A stretch of DNA of 32,000 nucleotides from Candidatus Atelocyanobacterium thalassa isolate ALOHA (GCF_000025125.1 NC_013771.1:1260001-1292000); one strand, 5' to 3'; shown: positions 1-28,658, counted from the stretch's first letter. Notes: a model not told the origin generated them from the letters alone. Made by a program: numbers and translations.

Positions 1-1896
1 TGCTAACCAGAGATAGCGAGGGATATTTTCTCTTACCCTTCCTAGTGATTGAATAACAGATGTAGGATTTTGAATACCTTGAGCTAGACACCAAACAGAG
101 CTGAAATGTCCTTTTACATCAATACTAATTCCTGTCTCAAGAACAGGACTAGTAATAACAACATCATATTTGGTTAATATTGAATCTAAATGATCAATAC
201 ATTTATAAGCACTATGATTTGGATCTATTAGAGACTCAGAATCGATACGAAGAATTTTGGCTTCAGGAAATTGTTGTTGTAGATATAATTCTAAAGTTTG
301 TGTGCCCCATTTGCTAGTTAATTTCTGAGCTGATAGACAAATATAAGGTTTGCCGCCTTTTTGAATATGTTCTACTAAATCTTTTAAAAACTTCTTAGGA
401 GTATTTTCTATATAGTTGTAAGCTTTCCATGTACTTGAAGATTTAGGTATCCAGTTATTTCTAACTATGTAAGGTTTTATAGGATATCCAGATAAAGTAA
501 TTAGATACTCTACTGAAATATTGCTTAAATCTGCGTCTGCAACGAATAGCCTACCTTTCCCATTCATAACTGACTGCATTAAACTCTTTAAGCATCTTAG
601 AATGGAGACTCGATTATTAGAACAAGTATCAGAATTAAGACCATGCCAAAGTACTTGTTCAACCTCATCAATAATAATTAATGCATCTTGCCAATCATTT
701 GGATTAAAATTTGCCTGTGATTTCTCGTGCAGAGAATCAATACAAAGACCATATCCATAATGTCTTTTTGAATTATCTTGGTATTCCGTAATATATGATA
801 GTCCAAAGCGTTGACAAAGCTGTTGAACTAATTTGATACGATGCCCAATGACTAAAATTTTTTGTTTTTTTGCAATTGCTTTCTGAACAATTTTAGATAA
901 GAATTTAGTTTTTCCGGTACCAATACCAGATTTTATAGCAACTAGTTTTTCCGTTTCCGGTATAGATAAGTTAGGAATGTAAGGAGTATTAATTTCTAGA
1001 TTGGAATCAAGAGTTAAATGGTTTAGTTCCTTTGCTTTCCAAGTTTCAATAGGAAGAGCCTTGTTGTAACACTCATTAAAAGAATCATTACCAGAATTTA
1101 ATAAAAAATCATCTACTCCTTTTCCATATTTCAAATCCCAGGTAATTACTTTAACCTGGCATTTTAAAGAATTCATTAAAAATCCTAATTTTTTAATTGC
1201 TTTATTAACCGCCTTTACAGTATTAGGTTTGTTATCTTGATCAAAGACTATATAAATATTTCTTCCTCTTGCAACTAGTTTATGTAATTGAGGAATTAAG
1301 TAAGATTTTCCAATACGATTACCAATCTCATCTTTTGGCGTCCGATAACCATTATTAATACCAGGAAGGGCAACAGCTACATAGCCTGTAGTTAGTAACG
1401 CACCTGCTTTTTTTGCCCCTTCTGTTATGCAAAGTGGAATAGACTTATTGTCAATTACCCATTGCCAAAAGCCAAAGTCTGATTGAGATTTATCAACCAT
1501 TTCTAATCTAAATTCGATGTTATATCTTTCAGCTATTCTTCGCCATAAATGTAGTGGTACTCTTAAAGCAAAAATACCTGTTGGTGTTTTTGGAGGATGT
1601 TCATATCTAATTATTCTATTTTTATCATGATTAAAGCGTGGCTTATCTGGTTTAAAGCATCCCCAAAGATCGCTTGATCCTGTCATAACATCAATACCAG
1701 AACACCACCATCCCCCTTCTTCTACATGTTCATAACGCTTTAAGATAGAGTTGCTAAGCCTACCGTTATTTCTTCTGGTAAGTTCATCAGAATATAGTAA
1801 ATATTCTGACGAAGAGGTTCCTTTTAAAGTTTTTACATTTAATTCAATCAATTGCCTATCAACGCAACTGTTCAACCATTCTTGTTCATGTCCCAC
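1..1896 (-). CDS. Partial CDS (C-terminus lies beyond the left window edge): DUF3854/Toprim primase-like domain fused to a P-loop SF2-type helicase; CyRepA-like plasmid-type replication protein
   Basis: Absent from the ORF track because it runs off the edge. The reverse frame is stop-free from nt 1 to 1956 (652 codons) in ~30% GC DNA. My translation gives EWLNSCVDRQLIELNV (N-terminus), CITEGAKKAG (Toprim Glu), IYIVFDQD (DxD), KSGIGTGKTKF (Walker A, about nt 905-935), LIIIDEVE (Walker B) and TSPVLETGISID. The first in-frame ATG (1686) lies downstream of the conserved N-terminus, so GTG at 1896 is the likeliest start. Confidence 0.75.
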   Translation of the reverse strand, partial: MGHEQEWLNSCVDRQLIELNVKTLKGTSSSEYLLYSDELTRRNNGRLSNSILKRYEHVEEGGWWCSGIDVMTGSSDLWGCFKPDKPRFNHDKNRIIRYEHPPKTPTGIFALRVPLHLWRRIAERYNIEFRLEMVDKSQSDFGFWQWVIDNKSIPLCITEGAKKAGALLTTGYVAVALPGINNGYRTPKDEIGNRIGKSYLIPQLHKLVARGRNIYIVFDQDNKPNTVKAVNKAIKKLGFLMNSLKCQVKVITWDLKYGKGVDDFLLNSGNDSFNECYNKALPIETWKAKELNHLTLDSNLEINTPYIPNLSIPETEKLVAIKSGIGTGKTKFLSKIVQKAIAKKQKILVIGHRIKLVQQLCQRFGLSYITEYQDNSKRHYGYGLCIDSLHEKSQANFNPNDWQDALIIIDEVEQVLWHGLNSDTCSNNRVSILRCLKSLMQSVMNGKGRLFVADADLSNISVEYLITLSGYPIKPYIVRNNWIPKSSSTWKAYNYIENTPKKFLKDLVEHIQKGGKPYICLSAQKLTSKWGTQTLELYLQQQFPEAKILRIDSESLIDPNHSAYKCIDHLDSILTKYDVVITSPVLETGISIDVKGHFSSVWCLAQGIQNPTSVIQSLGRVRENIPRYLWLA

Positions 1897-2279
1897 GCTT
1901 TTGTCTCCACTTTTAATGCTACAAAAAGCATTATCTATAGTGTCAGGATCTAGATCCTAAGGAAAAAAAACTAAATATGGAAGATACAAATAAACTACTA
2001 TGCTAAAAGAATAATTTAAACAGTTTAAACATAAGTTAAACTTATATTTAAATTTATAGTTTTGAATTATGCGAACTCAGATTAAAATAGTAAATATGTA
2101 AATATAGTTTTTTATTAGAATTCTTCTAACAGAATCATGCAAAATTACTTTTCTAACATAAAACTAAAAATAGTAAGGTTAATAGATTTACGATCTAAAG
2201 AAAATTTGTACAGTATATTCTTTAATATTTGTATAGATAAAACTGATATATTGATATCTACATACTGATCTTATGCTTA

Positions 2280-2622: not shown

Positions 2623-3510
2623 TTGATAGCTCAAGAACTTAACCTATGGATTGAAAGTGTTTTGTTAATAGAATATCCATTTAAGCGCGCAAGTCTGGAA
2701 TATTTAGGTGGCGAATATAGTGAAATTATTGTAAGCACTCCTAATGGAATCGTTCCAATTGGTAAAAATCATCCGACAGTAGTCGTGGCAGGTCCTTGCT
2801 CAGTTGAGAATAAGACTATGATTGTTGAAACTGCAAAACAAATTAAAGCATCAGGGGCTAAATTTTTGAGAGGTGGTGCTTACAAACCTCGTACTTCTCC
2901 ATATGCTTTTCAAGGTTATGGAGAAAGTGCTTTAGAGTTACTATCTATTGCTAAACAAGAAACTGGTTTAGGTATCATAACAGAAGTGATGGATGCTGGT
3001 GATTTAGATAAGATTAAAGAGGTCGCTGATATTATTCAAATAGGAGCTCGAAATATGCAAAATTTTTCTTTACTTAGAAAGGTTGGCTCTCAAGATAAGC
3101 CTATTCTTCTAAAACGGGGAATAGCAGCTACTATTAATGAATGGCTAATGGCTGCTGAATATATCTTGGCAGCTGGAAATCCAAATGTCATTCTTTGCGA
3201 AAGAGGCATTAGAACATTTGATACTAAATATACTCGTAATACTTTAGATTTGTCCGTAATACCAGTTTTACGCTCATTAACTCATTTACCAATAATGGTT
3301 GATCCTAGTCATGGAACTGGAAAGGCAGACTATGTACCTGCAATGGCTACTGCAGCAGTAGCAGCAGGTACAGATTCCTTAATGATTGAGGTACATCCCA
3401 ATCCGGCAAAAGCTCTGTCAGATGGAATTCAATCGTTAACTCCAGTTAAATTTAATAATCTTATGCACAAAATATTCGTTATTGACCAAACAATTCATAA
3501 ACTGGCATGA
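2623..3510 (+). CDS. aroF: 3-deoxy-7-phosphoheptulonate (DAHP) synthase, type I-beta catalytic core
   Basis: Motifs VVAGPCSVEN, LRGGAYKPRTSPYAFQG, IQIGARNMQNF, LLKRG, ILCERGIRTF, DPSH and EVHPNPAKALSDG. The track start is TTG. No in-frame ATG precedes the metal-binding Cys of GPCSVE. Confidence 0.9.
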   Translation: MIAQELNLWIESVLLIEYPFKRASLEYLGGEYSEIIVSTPNGIVPIGKNHPTVVVAGPCSVENKTMIVETAKQIKASGAKFLRGGAYKPRTSPYAFQGYGESALELLSIAKQETGLGIITEVMDAGDLDKIKEVADIIQIGARNMQNFSLLRKVGSQDKPILLKRGIAATINEWLMAAEYILAAGNPNVILCERGIRTFDTKYTRNTLDLSVIPVLRSLTHLPIMVDPSHGTGKADYVPAMATAAVAAGTDSLMIEVHPNPAKALSDGIQSLTPVKFNNLMHKIFVIDQTIHKLA

Positions 3511-6172: not shown

Positions 6173-7822
6173 TTATCTTAGTCTTCCTGAACGTAGAATA
6201 CTAATAATTAGCCATACTCCTAATATACTTGCTGAAGTAAATAAAACACTGCTTATTATAGATAATTGCTGAGTTGAAGAACCAACAGAAATGATTGCGG
6301 CTCCCATTATTAAAGATCCTAAAACTATACTAAATGAAAGTCTATTTGCTGAAGCATCAATACTACGTCTCAAAGGTTCTAATTCTCTTAATTTTATATT
6401 CCAGTTAAAAGTCTCTGAGGATAATCGATCTAATAAAGTTTCTATTCTTCGAGGAGTCTTCAAGGAAATAGATTTCAAATCTAGGATTGTTCTTAGTCCC
6501 GTTTGTAGAGGTTTATCTCCCACGAGTTGACGATAAAATAAACTAGTCATTAATGGGTTTATTTCATCAAAAAGATTGAAAGATGGGTTAAACTGTCTTG
6601 CTGTACCTTCTAGATTCCCTAAACATTTTGCGTATAATCCTAAATTTCCTGGAATTGTTAATTTATTTTTGCGTGCAATTTGTAATATTTCATATACAAC
6701 TTCGCTTAGATTAAATTGAGAAAGATTTAAATTATAGTATTTCTTTAATATTTTTTTATAATCATTTTGTAACTTTAGCAGATTATCTACTTTATCTGAT
6801 TCTGATAGCTTAAATGTTAATTGAGCACATCCTTGAGCATCTAAATCAAAAATTGCTAATAATAATTCTATTAATATTTTTTGTGTTTGTGGATCAATTT
6901 TACCTACCATTCCACAATCAATAATAGCTATCCTACCGTCATTTAAATAAAATAAATTACCAGGATGAGGATCTGCATGGAAGAATCCATCAACATAAAT
7001 TTGTTGAAAGAAAGCCCTAAACAGTAAGGTTGTAATCTCTTTTCGTTTTTCCTTAGCAGATTTAATAGCTTTAGGAATATTTAAATCAGCTTCTAAAATT
7101 GGTTTTCCATATAACCATTCTAAAACTAAGATTTTTTCTGTCGTTATTTCCCAATATACTCTGGGTATTAGTATATTATGAGCATCAAACCAGAGGCTTG
7201 AAGATAAATTATTGCGAATAGTATCTGTATAGCTTGCTTCTTTTGTAAAATCTAATTCAGATTTAATAGCTTCACAAAATTCATCAGCAAGCTGTACGAT
7301 ATCATAATTTCTCCCAAATTCTGTGAGTGAGACTAATTCGGCAATTCCTTTGATTAAATTGATATCTTGTTGTACTATCTTGTCAATATTCGGACGTTGA
7401 ACTTTAATAGCCACTTCTTCTCCATTAAGAAGAATTCCACGATGAATTTGTCCAATAGAACCAGCTGCAATGGGTTTCTTCTCAATATTACTAAATATAG
7501 CTTTTATAGGTTTTGATAATTGCTCATTTAAAAGAGCTTCAATTTCGCTCCAAGGAACTGAAGAAACATTAGACTGCAAAGCAGTTAGAGCTTTAATATA
7601 ACTAGGAGAGAGAATATCAGGACGTGTACTTAAAAGCTGTCCTAATTTCACATAAAAAGGACCTAGTTCTATTAATATATTTCTCAAAACCTCTGGGGTG
7701 GGAATTTGAGGGTTTTCTGTTTTACCAGCTGTTAATAATCCTCTCATATATTCCCAGCCGTTGCTAAGTAAGACTTCAAGAATCTCTCGTTGACGAGCAC
7801 TAGTTTGAGTCAAAGAAAACAT
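6173..7822 (-). CDS. ABC1/UbiB-family atypical kinase with a C-terminal membrane anchor
   Basis: IAAGSIGQIHRG, VAIKVQRP, FHADPHPGN and IDCGMVG, plus two hydrophobic C-terminal segments. Confidence 0.85.
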   Translation of the reverse strand: MFSLTQTSARQREILEVLLSNGWEYMRGLLTAGKTENPQIPTPEVLRNILIELGPFYVKLGQLLSTRPDILSPSYIKALTALQSNVSSVPWSEIEALLNEQLSKPIKAIFSNIEKKPIAAGSIGQIHRGILLNGEEVAIKVQRPNIDKIVQQDINLIKGIAELVSLTEFGRNYDIVQLADEFCEAIKSELDFTKEASYTDTIRNNLSSSLWFDAHNILIPRVYWEITTEKILVLEWLYGKPILEADLNIPKAIKSAKEKRKEITTLLFRAFFQQIYVDGFFHADPHPGNLFYLNDGRIAIIDCGMVGKIDPQTQKILIELLLAIFDLDAQGCAQLTFKLSESDKVDNLLKLQNDYKKILKKYYNLNLSQFNLSEVVYEILQIARKNKLTIPGNLGLYAKCLGNLEGTARQFNPSFNLFDEINPLMTSLFYRQLVGDKPLQTGLRTILDLKSISLKTPRRIETLLDRLSSETFNWNIKLRELEPLRRSIDASANRLSFSIVLGSLIMGAAIISVGSSTQQLSIISSVLFTSASILGVWLIISILRSGRLR

Positions 7823-13409: not shown

Positions 13410-13916
13410 TTAACGAATACGGGAATATGCAGCTTCAGAAATAGTAGGAATTTCTGCATATCGGCCTAATGTACTTTGGAACATAGAATAATAAGAAGCA
13501 ATAAGACCGCCTAGAAAGATAAGACTGTAAAAAGTTTCTATCAACAATCCACTGTGTCCTAAAGCAGGTATTAAAACATATTGCATTACGATTCTTGCTA
13601 AAGCTAATGAAATTGATATGAGAATAGATTGCATTGTGTTGTAACGAATAAAATGACTAATTTTTTCGTTTCTGACAACTGCTGCAAAAAGTATAATAAA
13701 TACTGCGAAGCTAGCAAAGCTACCCAGAGGTCCCAATAAAGATGCGATAAGTCCATAGCTTAATTCTATTGGTAAAGCAGGGAAGCAGAAAAAGCCAAAG
13801 GCAGGAAACTGTTGTAAAAGAAAGCTTCCAAAAAATAAAGTATCATAAATAGCAAAACAATAAACTATGATTCCAAAAATGCGATCTGGTATACTTACTG
13901 ATCCACGCCACGTCAT
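13410..13916 (-). CDS. Tic20-like inner-membrane protein (cyanobacterial homologue of the chloroplast Tic20 family)
   Basis: Four predicted hydrophobic helices and an N-terminus MTWRGSVSIPDRIFGIIVY typical of cyanobacterial Tic20-like proteins. AAGGAG lies 8 nt upstream of ATG 13916, so I reject the GTG at 13955 used by the track. Confidence 0.65.
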   Translation of the reverse strand: MTWRGSVSIPDRIFGIIVYCFAIYDTLFFGSFLLQQFPAFGFFCFPALPIELSYGLIASLLGPLGSFASFAVFIILFAAVVRNEKISHFIRYNTMQSILISISLALARIVMQYVLIPALGHSGLLIETFYSLIFLGGLIASYYSMFQSTLGRYAEIPTISEAAYSRIR

Positions 13917-14059
13917 TGTTAATACTCCTTTATTACAGAAAAGATTAAACAACACTAATGTACAACATTTATTAAAAATAATATTATCTAGTTTTAATCT
14001 ATATAAATTTACCTACAAGTTTTTTTAGAATAATGATTAGTATTGTAGAATTTATAAAT

Positions 14060-14599
14060 TTACTTTAGATCCAATAAACCTTTTTCTTTCAATTTAGGAT
14101 TAAATCGGATTTCAACATTACTTCCACGATCTGAAAGTGATTTTTCAATATTGTTTTGTACTTGTCTAGCAATTGTTTTTAAGAGTTTTATTTGAGATAT
14201 TTCATTACCATTAGCATAGTCTTTTTTATCTTCTTCTGTCATTTGTATTTTTGCATCAATAGGTTGAGTCCACAATGCCTGATGTTCTAAACTCTCAAGA
14301 ATAGAATTTTTATACTGGCTGATCCAGTCTTTCTTAATTTGTTCTAGGATACTACGGTTAGGATTATCTATTGTTTCAAATTTAAGCCAATAACAATTAT
14401 TCGGTTGACGAACTAAATGTTGTTTTAAGCTTAAATAAATATCGCGAGAATAGCCTATAAACTGAATGTGCTTGTTTTTATTAAAAATTGCATAAACTCC
14501 TATCTTTTTGTGTAATTTTTCGTTTATCAATCCGTCATTATCTAAATATGGAAAAAAATTCAATGACTGTAAATCTGATGTTATGTTCTTGATAGTCAT
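14060..14599 (-). CDS. Stand-alone GIY-YIG nuclease-superfamily domain protein
   Basis: GVYAIF ... IQFIGYSRDIYLSLKQH ... LEQIKKDWI matches the GIY / YIG / Arg / Glu spacing of the GIY-YIG fold. Confidence 0.6.
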   Translation of the reverse strand: MTIKNITSDLQSLNFFPYLDNDGLINEKLHKKIGVYAIFNKNKHIQFIGYSRDIYLSLKQHLVRQPNNCYWLKFETIDNPNRSILEQIKKDWISQYKNSILESLEHQALWTQPIDAKIQMTEEDKKDYANGNEISQIKLLKTIARQVQNNIEKSLSDRGSNVEIRFNPKLKEKGLLDLK

Positions 14600-14954: not shown

Positions 14955-14973
14955 AGTATGCGTTCATTATTTT

Positions 14974-15058
14974 GGAGAGGTGGCAGAGTGGTTGAATGCG
15001 GTAGTCTCGAAAACTATTTTGTCGCAAGGCAACGAGGGTTCGAATCCCTCTCTCTCCG
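14974..15058 (+). tRNA. tRNA-Ser (anticodon CGA), type II with a long variable arm; CCA not encoded
   Basis: Folded by hand. Acceptor GGAGAGG/TCTCTCC (one G-U), 3-bp D stem, anticodon stem GTAGT/ACTAT with loop CU-CGA-AA, 5-bp variable stem, T arm GAGGG-TTCGAAT-CCCTC, discriminator G. Confidence 0.9.
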
Positions 15059-15192
15059 TCATAAATATCAAATATTTAAAATATTATTTGTTATTATATG
15101 TAATTCTTATTAATTAGAGAATTATTGACTGCTTTCAAGAAACAAGAAAGTTTAATGGCTTATGACATAAATTAAATTTGTACTAAATATTA

Positions 15193-25928: not shown

Positions 25929-26483
25929 TTAAGCATCAGTAAGAATGTTATTATTTTTAACTGATGTGGAGTTTAAAAGAAATAGAGATGCACGAGACAT
26001 CGCTTCATGAGATAAATTCATTTTAGTTAAAGTTATCAAACCTTCCTGAATAAACATATCTCGTATCAAACTTTTATTAACTTTATTAAATTCCGTTTCA
26101 TAAAAAACTTCTTTAATTCCGGCAGAAATTATTAGTTTCAAACAAGATATACAAGGTTCCAAGGTTACGTAAATAGTAGAGTTATTTGTAGAAATTCTAT
26201 ATTTTGCTGCTTGTGCAATAGCATTTGCCTCTGCATGAACAGCACGTGAAGGCAAATTGCTAGAAGAAATACAGCTTTCAAGTCCTGGATAACAAACACC
26301 CTGACTTATACAGTGACTAGAGTTGGCAGGAGGACCATTGTACCCAGTAGATAAAACACGCTTATCTTTTACAATAACGGCTCCTACTGGAAAGGCTAAA
26401 CAAGTAGATCTTGTAGCAGCTAACTTAGCCATCATCATAAAATACTCGTTCCAAGTAGGTCTTTGACCTTTTATGTATGTCAT
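25929..26483 (-). CDS. Deoxycytidylate (dCMP) deaminase
   Basis: Zinc-binding HAEANAI and PCISCLKLI motifs. Size and layout of ComEB/dCMP deaminases. Confidence 0.85.
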   Translation of the reverse strand: MTYIKGQRPTWNEYFMMMAKLAATRSTCLAFPVGAVIVKDKRVLSTGYNGPPANSSHCISQGVCYPGLESCISSSNLPSRAVHAEANAIAQAAKYRISTNNSTIYVTLEPCISCLKLIISAGIKEVFYETEFNKVNKSLIRDMFIQEGLITLTKMNLSHEAMSRASLFLLNSTSVKNNNILTDA

Positions 26484-26514
26484 AAAAATATTTATAAGAA
26501 TTATTTAAAAAATA

Positions 26515-26946
26515 TTAAACTCCTGTTGAGCCGAATCCATCTGTGCCTCTAATTGAAGAACTTAAGGAATCTACCTCTTCAATTTCAACACGTATGATAG
26601 GCATGATAACCATTTGAGCAATTCTCATTCCTGGTAAAACTTTGAAAGAGATTGAACCATGATTAATCAGAACTACTCCAATCTCTCCACGATATCCTTC
26701 ATCAATAGTTCCTGGAGTATTTAAAACGGTAATTTGATGCTTTAAAGCTAAACCACTTCTTGGACGAATTTGTGCTTCTGTATTAGGAGGTAGTTCAATA
26801 GAGATACCAGTCTTAATTAGTTTACTTTCATAAGATTTAATTTCTACTTCTTCTATAGATATTAAATCCATTCCTGAATCTCCATAGTGCTCATATCGTG
26901 GAATAACCGCAGAGCTCTTTAGCTTTACTATTTTTAACTTATTCAT
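26515..26946 (-). CDS. dut: dUTP diphosphatase (trimeric dUTPase)
   Basis: [26 protein letters not shown] and GFGSTG, which are dUTPase motifs 1-5. Confidence 0.9.
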
Positions 26947-27083
26947 GTGATTATTTATTAATATAAAAAAGCGAGTTAATTTAAACTTCTACTAAAAATA
27001 GCTATTAAAAATTAGTATATGTTGCAATTTTATTTTTAGAAAGATATGTACTTTATCTGTAAAAGCTCAACTATCTTAACAAA

Positions 27084-27111
27084 ATTATATTTTGACATCA
27101 ATATTTGTCAA
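27084..27111 (-). promoter_or_regulatory. Consensus sigma70-type promoter (TTGACA, 16 nt, TATAAT) between the TS-like gene and dut
   Basis: The minus strand reads TTGACA (27111-27106), a 16-nt spacer, then TATAAT (27089-27084), about 135 nt upstream of the dut ATG. The -35 is half of an inverted repeat, ttgaca-N8-tgtcaa. Confidence 0.35.
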
Positions 27112-27143
27112 TGCCTATACAATGACTTAGAAAAATTTTTTAA

Positions 27144-28658
27144 CTAACTTTTAACTGTTAAGGGTTTATCTTGCTGATAATGATAAGATTTGTCCTTTAA
27201 ACAAATTTCTGCCTTTTGTAATTCTGAGCCCAAGTACATAGCATGTTTAATTCCAATACCAGGAGAATCCTCTGCAATTTTGTTATAGATTTTCCTTGCA
27301 GATTTACCAAAGTAACAATTTACAATTTCTCCTGAACCTGGGGTAATATGCTCAACAAATATTTGATTATTTTTAATAACAATTAAATAGCTACCACTAG
27401 GATCAGCATATTTTTTTTCTCGACATATTGTTTCGTATTCTGCATCTACTATTTTATCTGCATATTCCCAACAATCGTTATATATATGAGCGCTTTGGCT
27501 AACAGTCACTAATGGACCAATTTTCAACTTCTGATTAATTCGATTTTGTATTTCTCTCATAATATGTATTTGCAATGCCCTTAGGCCCATTGCATTTGAA
27601 GGCCATGCGGAAAACATATCATTACTACGAAACGTAGCTGTTAAAGATAATTCATCATCAATAGTTCTTATCCAAATATGATTTAGGCATGGAGGGCTGT
27701 CATTATTATCATAATCATTAACATCCCAGAGAGACATGACAGCTCTGGAAGAATTAATATCAGAAACTAGTAGATCAATAACTTGTTGGATTTGATCTTT
27801 TTTAAACCAAGATCTTAATCTTTGGCCATATGTATATTTGATCCCTTCTCGTTGTGAAGAATCATCAAGAATTTGGGATATATAGTCGTTGATAAATTCT
27901 CTTCTTATAGGAAGATAATTGGGTTCAGGAAAATAGAAATCTAAGGGTTCATCAGTAACGACAGCTACAATATTGATTAGTTCTTGCCATTTTCCATATT
28001 CAGTTGGCCTAACTCTTCCAGTTGTTTTAATACGATGTAATATCCTAACCCAGGTTTCTGCAATTGTAGAACCTTCTATTCGATGACAATATTTAGTTCC
28101 AGGACGTATTTTGGAACTAGTTTCCGTAAAAGGGAAAATCAGGGGATTACTCCAAGATTTTTTTTTCTCTTTTTTATTTAGTTCTTTGACATGATCAACT
28201 ACTTTAGAAATTGATTCAACTTCTCTATAAACTATAGATTCGCGAATTAACTCTAATACCTCAGCAGGAATTTCTATATCTATATACCCAAGAACATTAG
28301 AATTAATAATCCATACATCTTTCCCTATATGATCAACTCCTGCCCTGAAACCTTTAGACAAGAAATCTAATAGACATTGACATCCTCCTGCGTTTTGATC
28401 TTCTTTCGTTGACTGCAGTATAACGAGCGAAGCTACATGAGGATTTGCTAATAGGTTTCTTATTAAAGGGCTAATACCTCTGGTTGGACTATATAAGTTT
28501 CCAATAACTGCATATTCTTTTGATGTTAAATATCTTGCAACTGATTCTTTTACTGTCCATCCAGTAATGATAGCTGTTTGTCCATAACCACAAATTAATT
28601 GGTTAGCTTTGTAATGAGGATCATAATTAAATAAATAGTTTGATGGTGTAATCGTCAT
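27144..28658 (-). CDS. Thymidylate synthase-like three-domain protein: MtrA-like N-domain + ThyA-fold core + DUF4346-like C-domain
   Basis: Core motifs by my numbering: SSRAVMSLWD (res 303-312), SPPCLNH (Cys324), FRSNDMF (Arg344/Asp347), WPSNAMG (Asn355) and SAHIYND (His391/Tyr393). These parallel ThyA motifs RR..S.WNP, PPCH, QRS.D, PFNIA and H.Y. The N-terminus (AIITGWT...YAVIGNLYSPTRGISPLIRNLLANPHVASLVIL) resembles MtrA-like domains. The C-terminus is HAMYLGSELQKAE. Confidence 0.7.
   Translation of the reverse strand: MTITPSNYLFNYDPHYKANQLICGYGQTAIITGWTVKESVARYLTSKEYAVIGNLYSPTRGISPLIRNLLANPHVASLVILQSTKEDQNAGGCQCLLDFLSKGFRAGVDHIGKDVWIINSNVLGYIDIEIPAEVLELIRESIVYREVESISKVVDHVKELNKKEKKKSWSNPLIFPFTETSSKIRPGTKYCHRIEGSTIAETWVRILHRIKTTGRVRPTEYGKWQELINIVAVVTDEPLDFYFPEPNYLPIRREFINDYISQILDDSSQREGIKYTYGQRLRSWFKKDQIQQVIDLLVSDINSSRAVMSLWDVNDYDNNDSPPCLNHIWIRTIDDELSLTATFRSNDMFSAWPSNAMGLRALQIHIMREIQNRINQKLKIGPLVTVSQSAHIYNDCWEYADKIVDAEYETICREKKYADPSGSYLIVIKNNQIFVEHITPGSGEIVNCYFGKSARKIYNKIAEDSPGIGIKHAMYLGSELQKAEICLKDKSYHYQQDKPLTVKS

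Follow-up and report, generated by a model that had tools for sequence, protein, structure and literature searches.

A vertically inherited chromosomal CyRepA1-family primase-helicase gene with an upstream paired-box element in UCYN-A, a candidate factor for replication without DnaA

DnaA is a sequence-specific initiator, and its gene often lies beside its own binding sites and is autoregulated. Replication without DnaA in cyanobacteria, including Synechocystis, Nostoc 7120, PCC 7002, and the endosymbionts that are turning into organelles, has been an open question since 2016. A study in 2020 still calls the mechanism 'unknown' (PMC7198777), and a 2026 preprint speculates on host-encoded initiators. 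In the present study, we analyzed a stretch of 32,000 nucleotides from the chromosome of Candidatus Atelocyanobacterium thalassa isolate ALOHA (UCYN-A; NC_013771.1, 1260001-1292000), hereafter called the window, and in particular the gene at its left edge, an ortholog of UCYN_11190. This is the single chromosomal CyRepA1-family gene of UCYN-A, and the window holds its 5' two-thirds. We found that the gene is intact and transcribed, that it is subject to strong purifying selection, and that its inheritance has been vertical. We also found that it and the other genes of its core clade carry a cis module of their own just upstream of the start codon, consisting of two inverted boxes of 13-15 nt that lie about 40 nt apart and flank an AT-rich spacer. 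A gene annotated as hypothetical or as 'plasmid replication protein' thereby becomes a concrete and testable candidate.

Two described systems are closest to this gene. The first is CyRepA1 itself. Rep activity has been demonstrated for CyRepA2 and for Slr7037, the CyRepA1 protein of the Synechocystis plasmid pSYSA (PMC9978351 for Slr7037), and Slr7037 is needed for autonomous replication of pSYSA, also in a heterologous host (PMC9978351). The second is UL9, the origin-binding initiator of a herpesvirus, dimers of which bind inverted boxes flanking an AT-rich spacer and distort the spacer (PMC12543377). In 2024, Ohdate et al. reported that 80 of 145 genomes contain chromosomal CyRepA homologs and said that the function of these homologs needs validation (PMC10899382). 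Their Supplementary Data 1 lists cyu:UCYN_11190, cce_1866, slr0554, alr3925, ETSB_0960, RGRSB_0911, and Aazo_4775; the presence of the gene on the UCYN-A chromosome was already tabulated there (PMC10899382). The accessible part of that report describes no vertically inherited core clade, no link to the loss of dnaA, and no cis element. In the searchable literature, we found no paper linking CyRepA or DUF3854 to DnaA-independent replication, and the literature search gave no functional papers on slr0554, alr3925, or UCYN_11190. Apparently new are the recognition of a distinct, vertically inherited clade under housekeeping-level constraint, its UL9-like predicted fold, the paired-box module that marks the clade, and the retention of the gene in every endosymbiont lineage that has lost dnaA.

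The gene is encoded on the reverse strand. As the first-pass annotation of this DNA had noted, a reverse frame of 652 stop-free codons (1-1956) runs off the left edge; the coding sequence itself occupies 1..1896 (-), that is, codons 1-632 of 1009, and is cut by the window edge. Extension to the left in relatives showed a full-length gene (1009 aa), both in UCYN-A4 and on a contig with 99.6% nucleotide identity (L021, protein P0001), where the 1009-codon form is complete. The nearest proteins are P0001 (1009 aa, 99% identical), that of a UCYN-A4 metagenome-assembled genome (MAG; 88%), and then those of Crocosphaera (69%).

Profile searches bore out the earlier assignment of the product as a DUF3854/Toprim protein with a P-loop superfamily 2 (SF2) helicase, belonging to the CyRepA family and related to Slr7037. 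Pfam DUF3854 (PF12965) matched amino acids 163-291 of the open frame with E = 2.5e-53. In the helicase region, Pfam gave ResIII (E = 9e-6) and Herpes_ori_bp (PF02399; E = 3.5e-8, 32.5 bits against a gathering score of 20), the latter over only profile positions 22-203 of 820. The NCBIfam CyRepA1 model NF042913 matched amino acids 336-651 of the open frame with 387.2 bits against a cutoff of 200; only model positions 2-300 of 595 were covered because the window truncates the gene, and the full-length relative P0001 reached 616.7 bits over model positions 2-594. A weak DnaG profile match fell in the DUF3854/Toprim-like region. By sequence, the gene is a member of the CyRepA1 family that fails the attribute 'plasmid replication protein'.

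The predicted protein consists of a conserved N-terminal region without an assigned family, a Toprim primase-like domain, an SF2 helicase, and a C-terminal region outside the window. The N-terminal region (1471..1893 (-), about 140 aa) contains the blocks GGWWCSG, WGCFKP, and YEHPP and many invariant residues, and it has the lowest ratio of nonsynonymous to synonymous substitution rates (dN/dS) in the protein, 0.046; a Pfam search of 1471..1893 gave no family match covering the region. The DUF3854/Toprim-like primase domain follows at 1084..1470 (-), with the Toprim-like motifs ITEGAKKAG (1402-1428) and IVFDQD (1234-1251) and with E159 and D219/D221 invariant. At 4..951 (-) lies the initial half of the region matched by the CyRepA1 model. 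This part is a UL9-like SF2 helicase recognized by NF042913, Herpes_ori_bp, and ResIII, and it includes the P-loop Walker A motif GIGTGKT (907-927), the Walker B motif IIIDEVE (658-678), and, further downstream in the gene, the SF2-like motif TSPVLETGISID. All five motifs named in the first-pass annotation were present when the coordinates were checked.

The order of N-terminal region, DUF3854/Toprim domain, SF2 helicase, and C-terminal region is the same in Slr7037. All the catalytic residues are common to both, and the full-length UCYN-A protein matches the whole of NF042913 (617 bits). The two proteins are only 39% identical, however, and Slr7037 falls outside the chromosomal clade described below. 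Their settings also differ: slr7037 is plasmid-borne and lies behind the sense/antisense RNA region of ssr7036, whereas the UCYN-A gene is chromosomal and lies behind the inverted-box module. A search of 1850-2650 against Rfam, in which a small-RNA region of the ssr7036 type was looked for, gave no match.

It had been noticed that this gene has no usable ATG start, the first in-frame ATG being codon 91 of the open frame, and a start at the GTG at 1896 had been proposed. That proposal held. Upstream of the conserved EWLNSCVD block, the GTG at 1894..1896 (-) is the sole start-type codon. The lack of a usable ATG reflects an ordinary GTG start, because five observations agree. Orthologs open with M-[N/G]-H-x-Q-E-W at the codon of this GTG, and their ATG codons (MNHRQEW, MNYLLEW, MNHQQEW) align with it. 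GTG is found at the start codon in the window, in L021, and in UCYN-A4 alike. A Shine-Dalgarno-like GGAG, read directly from the sequence, lies 8 nt upstream (1905..1908 (-)). In UCYN-A4, a 1-nt indel just upstream of the GTG disrupts the upstream frame. Finally, in the published ortholog table of Munoz-Marin et al., UCYN_11190 residues 1-1009 align with cce_1866 residues 22-1031, which gives the same start.

We then compared the residues and the predicted fold of the family. In an alignment of 27 members (22 chromosomal and 5 plasmid), 159 columns are invariant in all. They include, in P0001 numbering, the Toprim residues E159, D219xD221, and D262D263, Walker A G326-T330, Walker B D410E411, and motif VI Q616/R620/R622. 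An AlphaFold2 model (30 clade members) had a mean predicted local distance difference test score (pLDDT) of 77, with values of 50-74 before residue ~110. Its best fold match in the PDB was UL9 of herpes simplex virus 1 bound to OriS (9hgi_B; E = 5.1e-15, ~870 aligned columns). Generic SF2 helicases formed the class that came next, about six orders of magnitude behind UL9 at ~1e-8 and mostly over 350-530 columns. In a library of viral structures (BFVD), proteins of giant viruses, herpesviruses, and phages that are named 'replication origin-binding protein' and 'helicase-primase' ranked first; their alignments spanned 700-1068 columns, and the lowest E was 3.9e-28. A sequence search of the PDB found UL9 at E = 0.025. 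Judged by these best matches, the modeled fold appears closest to the viral origin-binding initiator UL9.

The likeness to UL9 and to the viral origin-binding and helicase-primase proteins thus consists of the best fold matches, a Herpes_ori_bp match above the gathering score, and the layout of inverted boxes around an AT-rich spacer upstream of the UCYN-A gene, where box binding would be the corresponding step. The differences are also clear. Sequence identity is 13-16%, and the Pfam match is confined to the part of the profile given above. UL9 has no Toprim domain, the herpes primase being a separate complex, whereas the UCYN-A protein has a Toprim-like domain; and the box sequences of the UCYN-A gene are unrelated to those of UL9. 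With DnaA and oriC there is only a functional analogy; the fold of DnaA (AAA+, with no helicase or primase activity) is unrelated.

The first-pass annotation had considered that the gene might be the remnant of an integrated plasmid or mobile element, decaying or selfishly kept in the UCYN-A chromosome. The name of the family and its best-studied members, which are plasmid Rep proteins, suggest such an origin, as does the fact that the gene order at the locus differs between genera. The observations on the locus contradict it, and we regard it as very improbable. The gene is full length, and its dN/dS against UCYN-A4 is 0.080 at a dS of 0.76, equal to that of housekeeping neighbors (0.07-0.16 in six neighboring genes); each of four protein regions gave 0.05-0.11. 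This level of constraint is found even in a genome of 1.44 Mb. In the 99.6%-identical relative, the gene lies between the genes for 3-deoxy-D-arabino-heptulosonate 7-phosphate (DAHP) synthase and rsfS, and the arrangement in UCYN-A4 is the same, so that the flanks are identical in two UCYN-A sublineages diverged to a dS of ~0.8. Upstream, the window and the relative share the order DAHP synthase, S49 peptidase, SepF, UbiB, NTP-transferase, TruB, and alanine racemase; downstream, the relative has rsfS, a CGLD27-like gene, and an asparaginase gene. The housekeeping surroundings noted earlier were confirmed by the gene content of the window, in which all the genes are of this kind: S6, a Tic20-like protein, signal peptidase, DnaJ/DnaK, a class II aminoacyl-tRNA synthetase, TrkH/TrkA, dCMP deaminase, dUTPase, a thymidylate-synthase-like protein, an M50 protease, and an enzyme of the phosphoglucomutase/phosphomannomutase family. 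No integrase, transposase, att repeats, or mobile-element genes were found in the window or in the UCYN-A loci. No tRNA gene adjoins the gene either; the only one in the window, for tRNA-Ser (14973-15060), is 13 kb away. The composition is ordinary (GC 0.32-0.33 at the gene and 0.24-0.37 across the window).

The relationships of the proteins point in the same direction. Crocosphaera subtropica, Gloeothece, Lyngbya, and five diatom spheroid bodies have homologs on complete chromosomes (2.5-6.1 Mb), and the members of the chromosomal clade are 55-69% identical to the UCYN-A protein. As the genes flanking the locus differ between genera (UCYN-A, Crocosphaera, spheroid body) and their order is uninformative on descent, descent was judged from phylogeny instead of from synteny across genera. 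In a neighbor-joining tree of the 22 chromosomal and 5 plasmid proteins with 200 bootstraps, the chromosomal proteins formed one clade (200/200), and all the plasmid copies lay outside. Within this clade, UCYN-A grouped with Crocosphaera, and the spheroid bodies grouped with Cyanothece-like strains (200/200 each), as in the species tree. All 261 matching plasmids in PLSDB encode proteins with at most 47% identity (39% for Slr7037). The protein sequences place the gene in a chromosome-specific CyRepA1 clade distinct from plasmid Rep genes such as slr7037, and the automatic (PGAP) name 'plasmid replication protein' is misleading for the chromosomal CyRepA1 genes. For UCYN-A, the table of Ohdate et al. 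gives no plasmid. Expression of UCYN_11190 was detected on an in situ diel microarray (Table S5 values of 5.1-6.7; Table S2 Fourier score of 4.4 with a false discovery rate of 0.15).

The region upstream of the gene was then examined. A leader/promoter region (1897..2030 (-)) is 85-97% identical to that of UCYN-A4, compared with 53-68% further upstream and with a dS of 0.6-0.8 in the flanking genes. The whole spacer, 1897-2440, has a GC content of 20.8%. The conserved part contains the proximal box ACACTATAGATAATG (1929..1943 (-); consensus ACrCTAnATrTrG), which is shared upstream of core-clade orthologs. It is followed by an inter-box spacer of 24 nt (1944..1967 (-)) and then by the distal box (1968..1982 (+)), an inverted copy of the proximal one that reads AAACTAAATATGGAA on the window's plus strand and TTCCATATTTAGTTT on the gene strand. 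The box starts are 39 nt apart in the window and 38-42 nt apart in the other lineages where both boxes were located. The spacer contains the -10-like hexamer TAGGAT (1954-1959) and, overlapping it, a perfect 14-nt palindrome, AGGATCTAGATCCT (1945-1958). The palindrome is UCYN-A-specific; UCYN-A4 has an imperfect version, and Crocosphaera has none. The box pair was found upstream of orthologs in Crocosphaera, a spheroid body, Pannus, Okeania, Lyngbya, and the MAG of an unclassified cyanobacterium; at a Coleofasciculaceae locus, the proximal box alone was identified. The 15-mer ACGCTACATATAGAG is identical between Crocosphaera and the spheroid body. Upstream of the five plasmid copies, slr7037 included, the pair was not found.

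A weight matrix was built from these original loci; as scanning them with it is circular, the result was not counted as a test. The independent tests were 80 newly fetched metagenome loci and one published single guide RNA (sgRNA). After dereplication, the core clade (at least 50% identity) comprised 43 loci, in 41 of which the upstream pair scored above every control window (median pair score of 27.2; maximum over the 982 control windows of the core set, 15.2). Of 11 dereplicated loci with plasmid-like paralogs (41-44% identity), only 1 did so, and the median was -2.9. The box spacing in the metagenome loci was 39-42 nt, with a mode of 40, and the spacers were 75% AT, compared with 58% for the loci overall. 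The sgRNA, which is directed against Synechocystis slr0554 (GACTCCATATCTAGTGTGCGG), contains the box; therefore, the element extends to a species outside the matrix set. Four core-clade loci with 50-56% identity (L057, L066, L080, and L088) had poor pair scores (-4 to 15); either the offset rule put the start codon in the wrong place, or the module has been lost or changed. At the locus of Pannus brasiliensis (L010), a second box-like pair, ACACTACATCTTGTG and TGACTATATATAGAG, is found at about -367 and -338 from the gene start (9105), with a spacing of 29 nt and ~300 nt upstream of the canonical pair. This is the only locus with extra boxes near the gene. In the window, ~80 bp of intergenic sequence further upstream (~2225-2305) is shared with the 99.6%-identical relative and absent from UCYN-A4.

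Which protein recognizes the boxes bears on the function of the gene. By analogy with UL9 and with autoregulated Rep proteins, the CyRepA1 protein itself may bind the pair. Alternatively, the boxes could belong to an unrelated, widely conserved transcription factor, and the gene could be non-replicative, acting in the control or exclusion of CyRepA plasmids, in defence, or in DNA processing. We consider this improbable. It is true that the boxes bracket a -10-like hexamer, as in classic operators. In 16 of 39 loci, a TAnnnT hexamer begins at position 8 or 9 of the spacer; since TAnnnT as such is not enriched (29 of 39 spacers, compared with 70% in shuffles), it is this preferred position that speaks for a -10 element. 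A scan with the sigma-70 consensus called no site at the box module, and the number of sites that it called was below that in shuffles. In most loci, however, the pair is the top-scoring site in ~6-22 kb and is found only at the CyRepA1 gene, a distribution that does not suit an unrelated regulator. A role in plasmid control or defence is suggested by the many carriers that also hold CyRepA plasmids and by pSYSA being a defence plasmid (PMC9978351). Against it, the table of Ohdate et al. gives no plasmids for UCYN-A or the spheroid bodies, and the gene is kept at a dN/dS of 0.08. The conservation of all the primase and helicase catalytic residues also argues against a role outside replication.

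The distribution of dnaA was then compared with that of the chromosomal gene. The statement in the first-pass annotation that several symbiotic or reduced cyanobacteria are reported to lack dnaA applies to UCYN-A itself, which has none (PMC6315102), so the objection that an intact dnaA would raise against an initiator role does not arise. All the spheroid bodies and Nostoc azollae also lack dnaA, and these losses were independent of that in UCYN-A (PMC7198777 for independence). In the table of Ohdate et al., each dnaA-less endosymbiont has exactly one chromosomal copy of the gene (UCYN_11190, ETSB_0960, RGRSB_0911, Aazo_4775), and, apart from one exception, no chromosomal copy is listed for S. 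elongatus, which depends on DnaA, or for the genomes of Prochlorococcus, marine Synechococcus, and Thermosynechococcus. Synechocystis and Nostoc 7120, in which dnaA is dispensable, have one chromosomal copy each. UCYN-A retains dnaB and dnaN; therefore, the initiator is the missing piece. The plasmid that rescued the dnaA deletion of S. elongatus in the work of Ohbayashi in 2016 was reportedly pANL. The only Rep candidate of pANL in the table of Ohdate et al. is a CyRepA homolog (PMC10899382).

Knockdown data are available for Synechocystis. In a CRISPR interference (CRISPRi) screen, slr0554 gave fitness values of -0.86, -1.07, -0.99, and -1.08 in four high-CO2 conditions (adjusted p values of 0.005-0.013) and of -0.4 to -1.1 in 7 of 11 conditions. 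In the same screen, dnaA and priA were about 0 (-0.5 to +0.6), dnaN was -0.2 to -2.4, dnaE-N was 0 to -1.9, and dnaB was -2.4 to -4.0. Thus, the knockdown of dnaA is neutral in this species and that of slr0554 is not. A published AR-seq screen used inserts of 1.5-2.5 kb, which are too short for the module of gene plus leader (~3.3 kb), and slr0554 was not recoverable in it. The annotation of the CRISPRi library also records an internal transcription start ('Entry1945 intern slr0554') within the C-terminal region of slr0554, and the sequence quoted at this entry encodes the conserved GQGSLFLPDFNGSQLGAIIG block.

These observations suggest the following explanation. Like UL9 at OriS, the protein would bind the inverted boxes in oligomeric form, and this binding would at least autoregulate its own promoter. 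Its helicase and primase activities would open the DNA and lay primers, and the retained DnaB/DnaN/Pol III replisome would then start or restart chromosome replication without DnaA. The gene would be an ancestral chromosomal replication factor and not a recently captured plasmid gene, and its presence may have allowed UCYN-A, the diatom spheroid bodies, and Nostoc azollae to tolerate losing dnaA. A role in DnaA-independent initiation or priming, including weaker versions in which the protein is one contributing factor, is in our judgment the single most likely function, although we hold it tentatively and with a little less than even confidence. A more specific proposal is that the chromosomal clade (UCYN_11190, cce_1866, slr0554, alr3925, ETSB_0960, Aazo_4775) together with the box module would be the DnaA-independent chromosomal initiator system of many cyanobacteria, a UL9-like origin-binding helicase-primase that fires at the box pair of its own gene and possibly elsewhere. 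This is possible, though on the doubtful side. If true, a prior initiator system would explain how dnaA could be lost separately in UCYN-A (the nitroplast), in the spheroid bodies, and in Nostoc azollae.

Several observations weigh against an initiator role. The DNA-binding, primase, helicase, and initiation roles of the chromosomal members are ones that we infer. The TM-scores against UL9 are low (0.33/0.40), in a range of 0.3-0.5 over the fold matches that is expected for flexible multi-domain models, and the UL9 match may lie partly or mainly within the helicase core. As the pair brackets a -10-like hexamer, it may be an operator only, possibly that of another transcription factor; and in most loci no iteron array lies within 10 kb, the two boxes being the only ones. 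The slr0554 knockdown is mild when compared with those of dnaB, dnaG, or dnaX (-1.5 to -5.6), and fitness was positive in two conditions. Most carriers of the chromosomal copy also have dnaA. Conversely, the free-living Cyanobacterium aponinum, C. stanieri, and HL-69 have neither dnaA nor any CyRepA gene, and the free-living Geminocystis has no dnaA and carries CyRepA copies on plasmids only; therefore, the protein is not a general substitute for DnaA. The oriC of UCYN-A predicted by the Z-curve method, which assumes DnaA-type landmarks, adjoins dnaN (PMC4009838) and is far from the gene by locus-tag order. A comparison with unique mapped origins in C. aponinum and Geminocystis was dropped, because published work shows multiple origins in these species and they have no chromosomal copy. 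A published AR-seq screen used inserts of 1.5-2.5 kb, which are too short for the module of gene plus leader (~3.3 kb), and slr0554 was not recoverable in it.

Some of these points would also fit a different function, and this is the main rival. The protein may be a factor for replication restart, repair, or the priming of R-loops or D-loops, a PriA-like primosome factor with a built-in primase that reloads and primes forks at stalled or recombination intermediates in highly polyploid cyanobacteria, with the boxes serving as an autoregulatory operator. A mild, condition-dependent CRISPRi phenotype, coexistence with dnaA in most carriers, and absence from some dnaA-less species would all be expected of such a factor. 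Moreover, the neutral effect of priA knockdown in Synechocystis would accommodate a second restart factor, and the replication of pSYSA has been proposed to be transcript-primed (PMC9978351). PriA, which acts in DnaA-independent replication, shares the SF2 helicase class with the protein, and NCBIfam PriA helicase motifs matched weakly (E = 6e-5; 21.7 bits against a family cutoff of 230). However, PriA has no primase domain and does not appear in the list of 50 fold matches; in structure, the protein comes closest to origin-binding initiators rather than to PriA, RecG, or Mfd. The family members tested so far are all plasmid initiators, a sequence-specific paired-box module is unexpected for a structure-specific factor, and three independent endosymbiont lineages that lost dnaA have all kept the gene. 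We regard a restart function as a serious but unlikely alternative to the initiation or priming role. Even if the protein proves to be a restart factor, or the gene to be merely autoregulated, the reading as an integrated plasmid is corrected. The paired-box element is open to direct binding and origin tests in tractable relatives.

In Crocosphaera subtropica (L022, CP000806.1), dnaN (cce_1864; 6389-7570) lies 2.4 kb upstream of cce_1866 with one gene between them, and the predicted oriC of this genome has been placed next to dnaN (PMC4009838). A tblastn search with the C. subtropica DnaN found no dnaN in the other loci then compared or in the window; the proximity in C. subtropica is probably a coincidence.

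Three further observations were made in the window. Upstream of the open reading frame (ORF) of DAHP synthase (2623-3510), the segment 2440-2622 (+) looks like a decayed N-terminal regulatory (FXD) domain of that enzyme. It is interrupted by a stop or frameshift in the window, and in UCYN-A4 it is a separate 41-aa ORF that is out of frame with the main ORF. In the published table, UCYN_11210 residues 4-293 align with cce_3366 residues 54-343; therefore, about 50 N-terminal residues of DAHP synthase are missing. At 25929-28658 (-), the genes for dCMP deaminase, dUTPase, and a 504-aa protein form a tight cluster for dTMP synthesis, the 504-aa protein having a partial thymidylate-synthase domain and a PterinBD-DUF4346 domain. 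Finally, a 179-aa ORF without a Pfam family adjoins the gene for the Tic20-like protein (14060-14599 (-) and 13410-13955 (-)).

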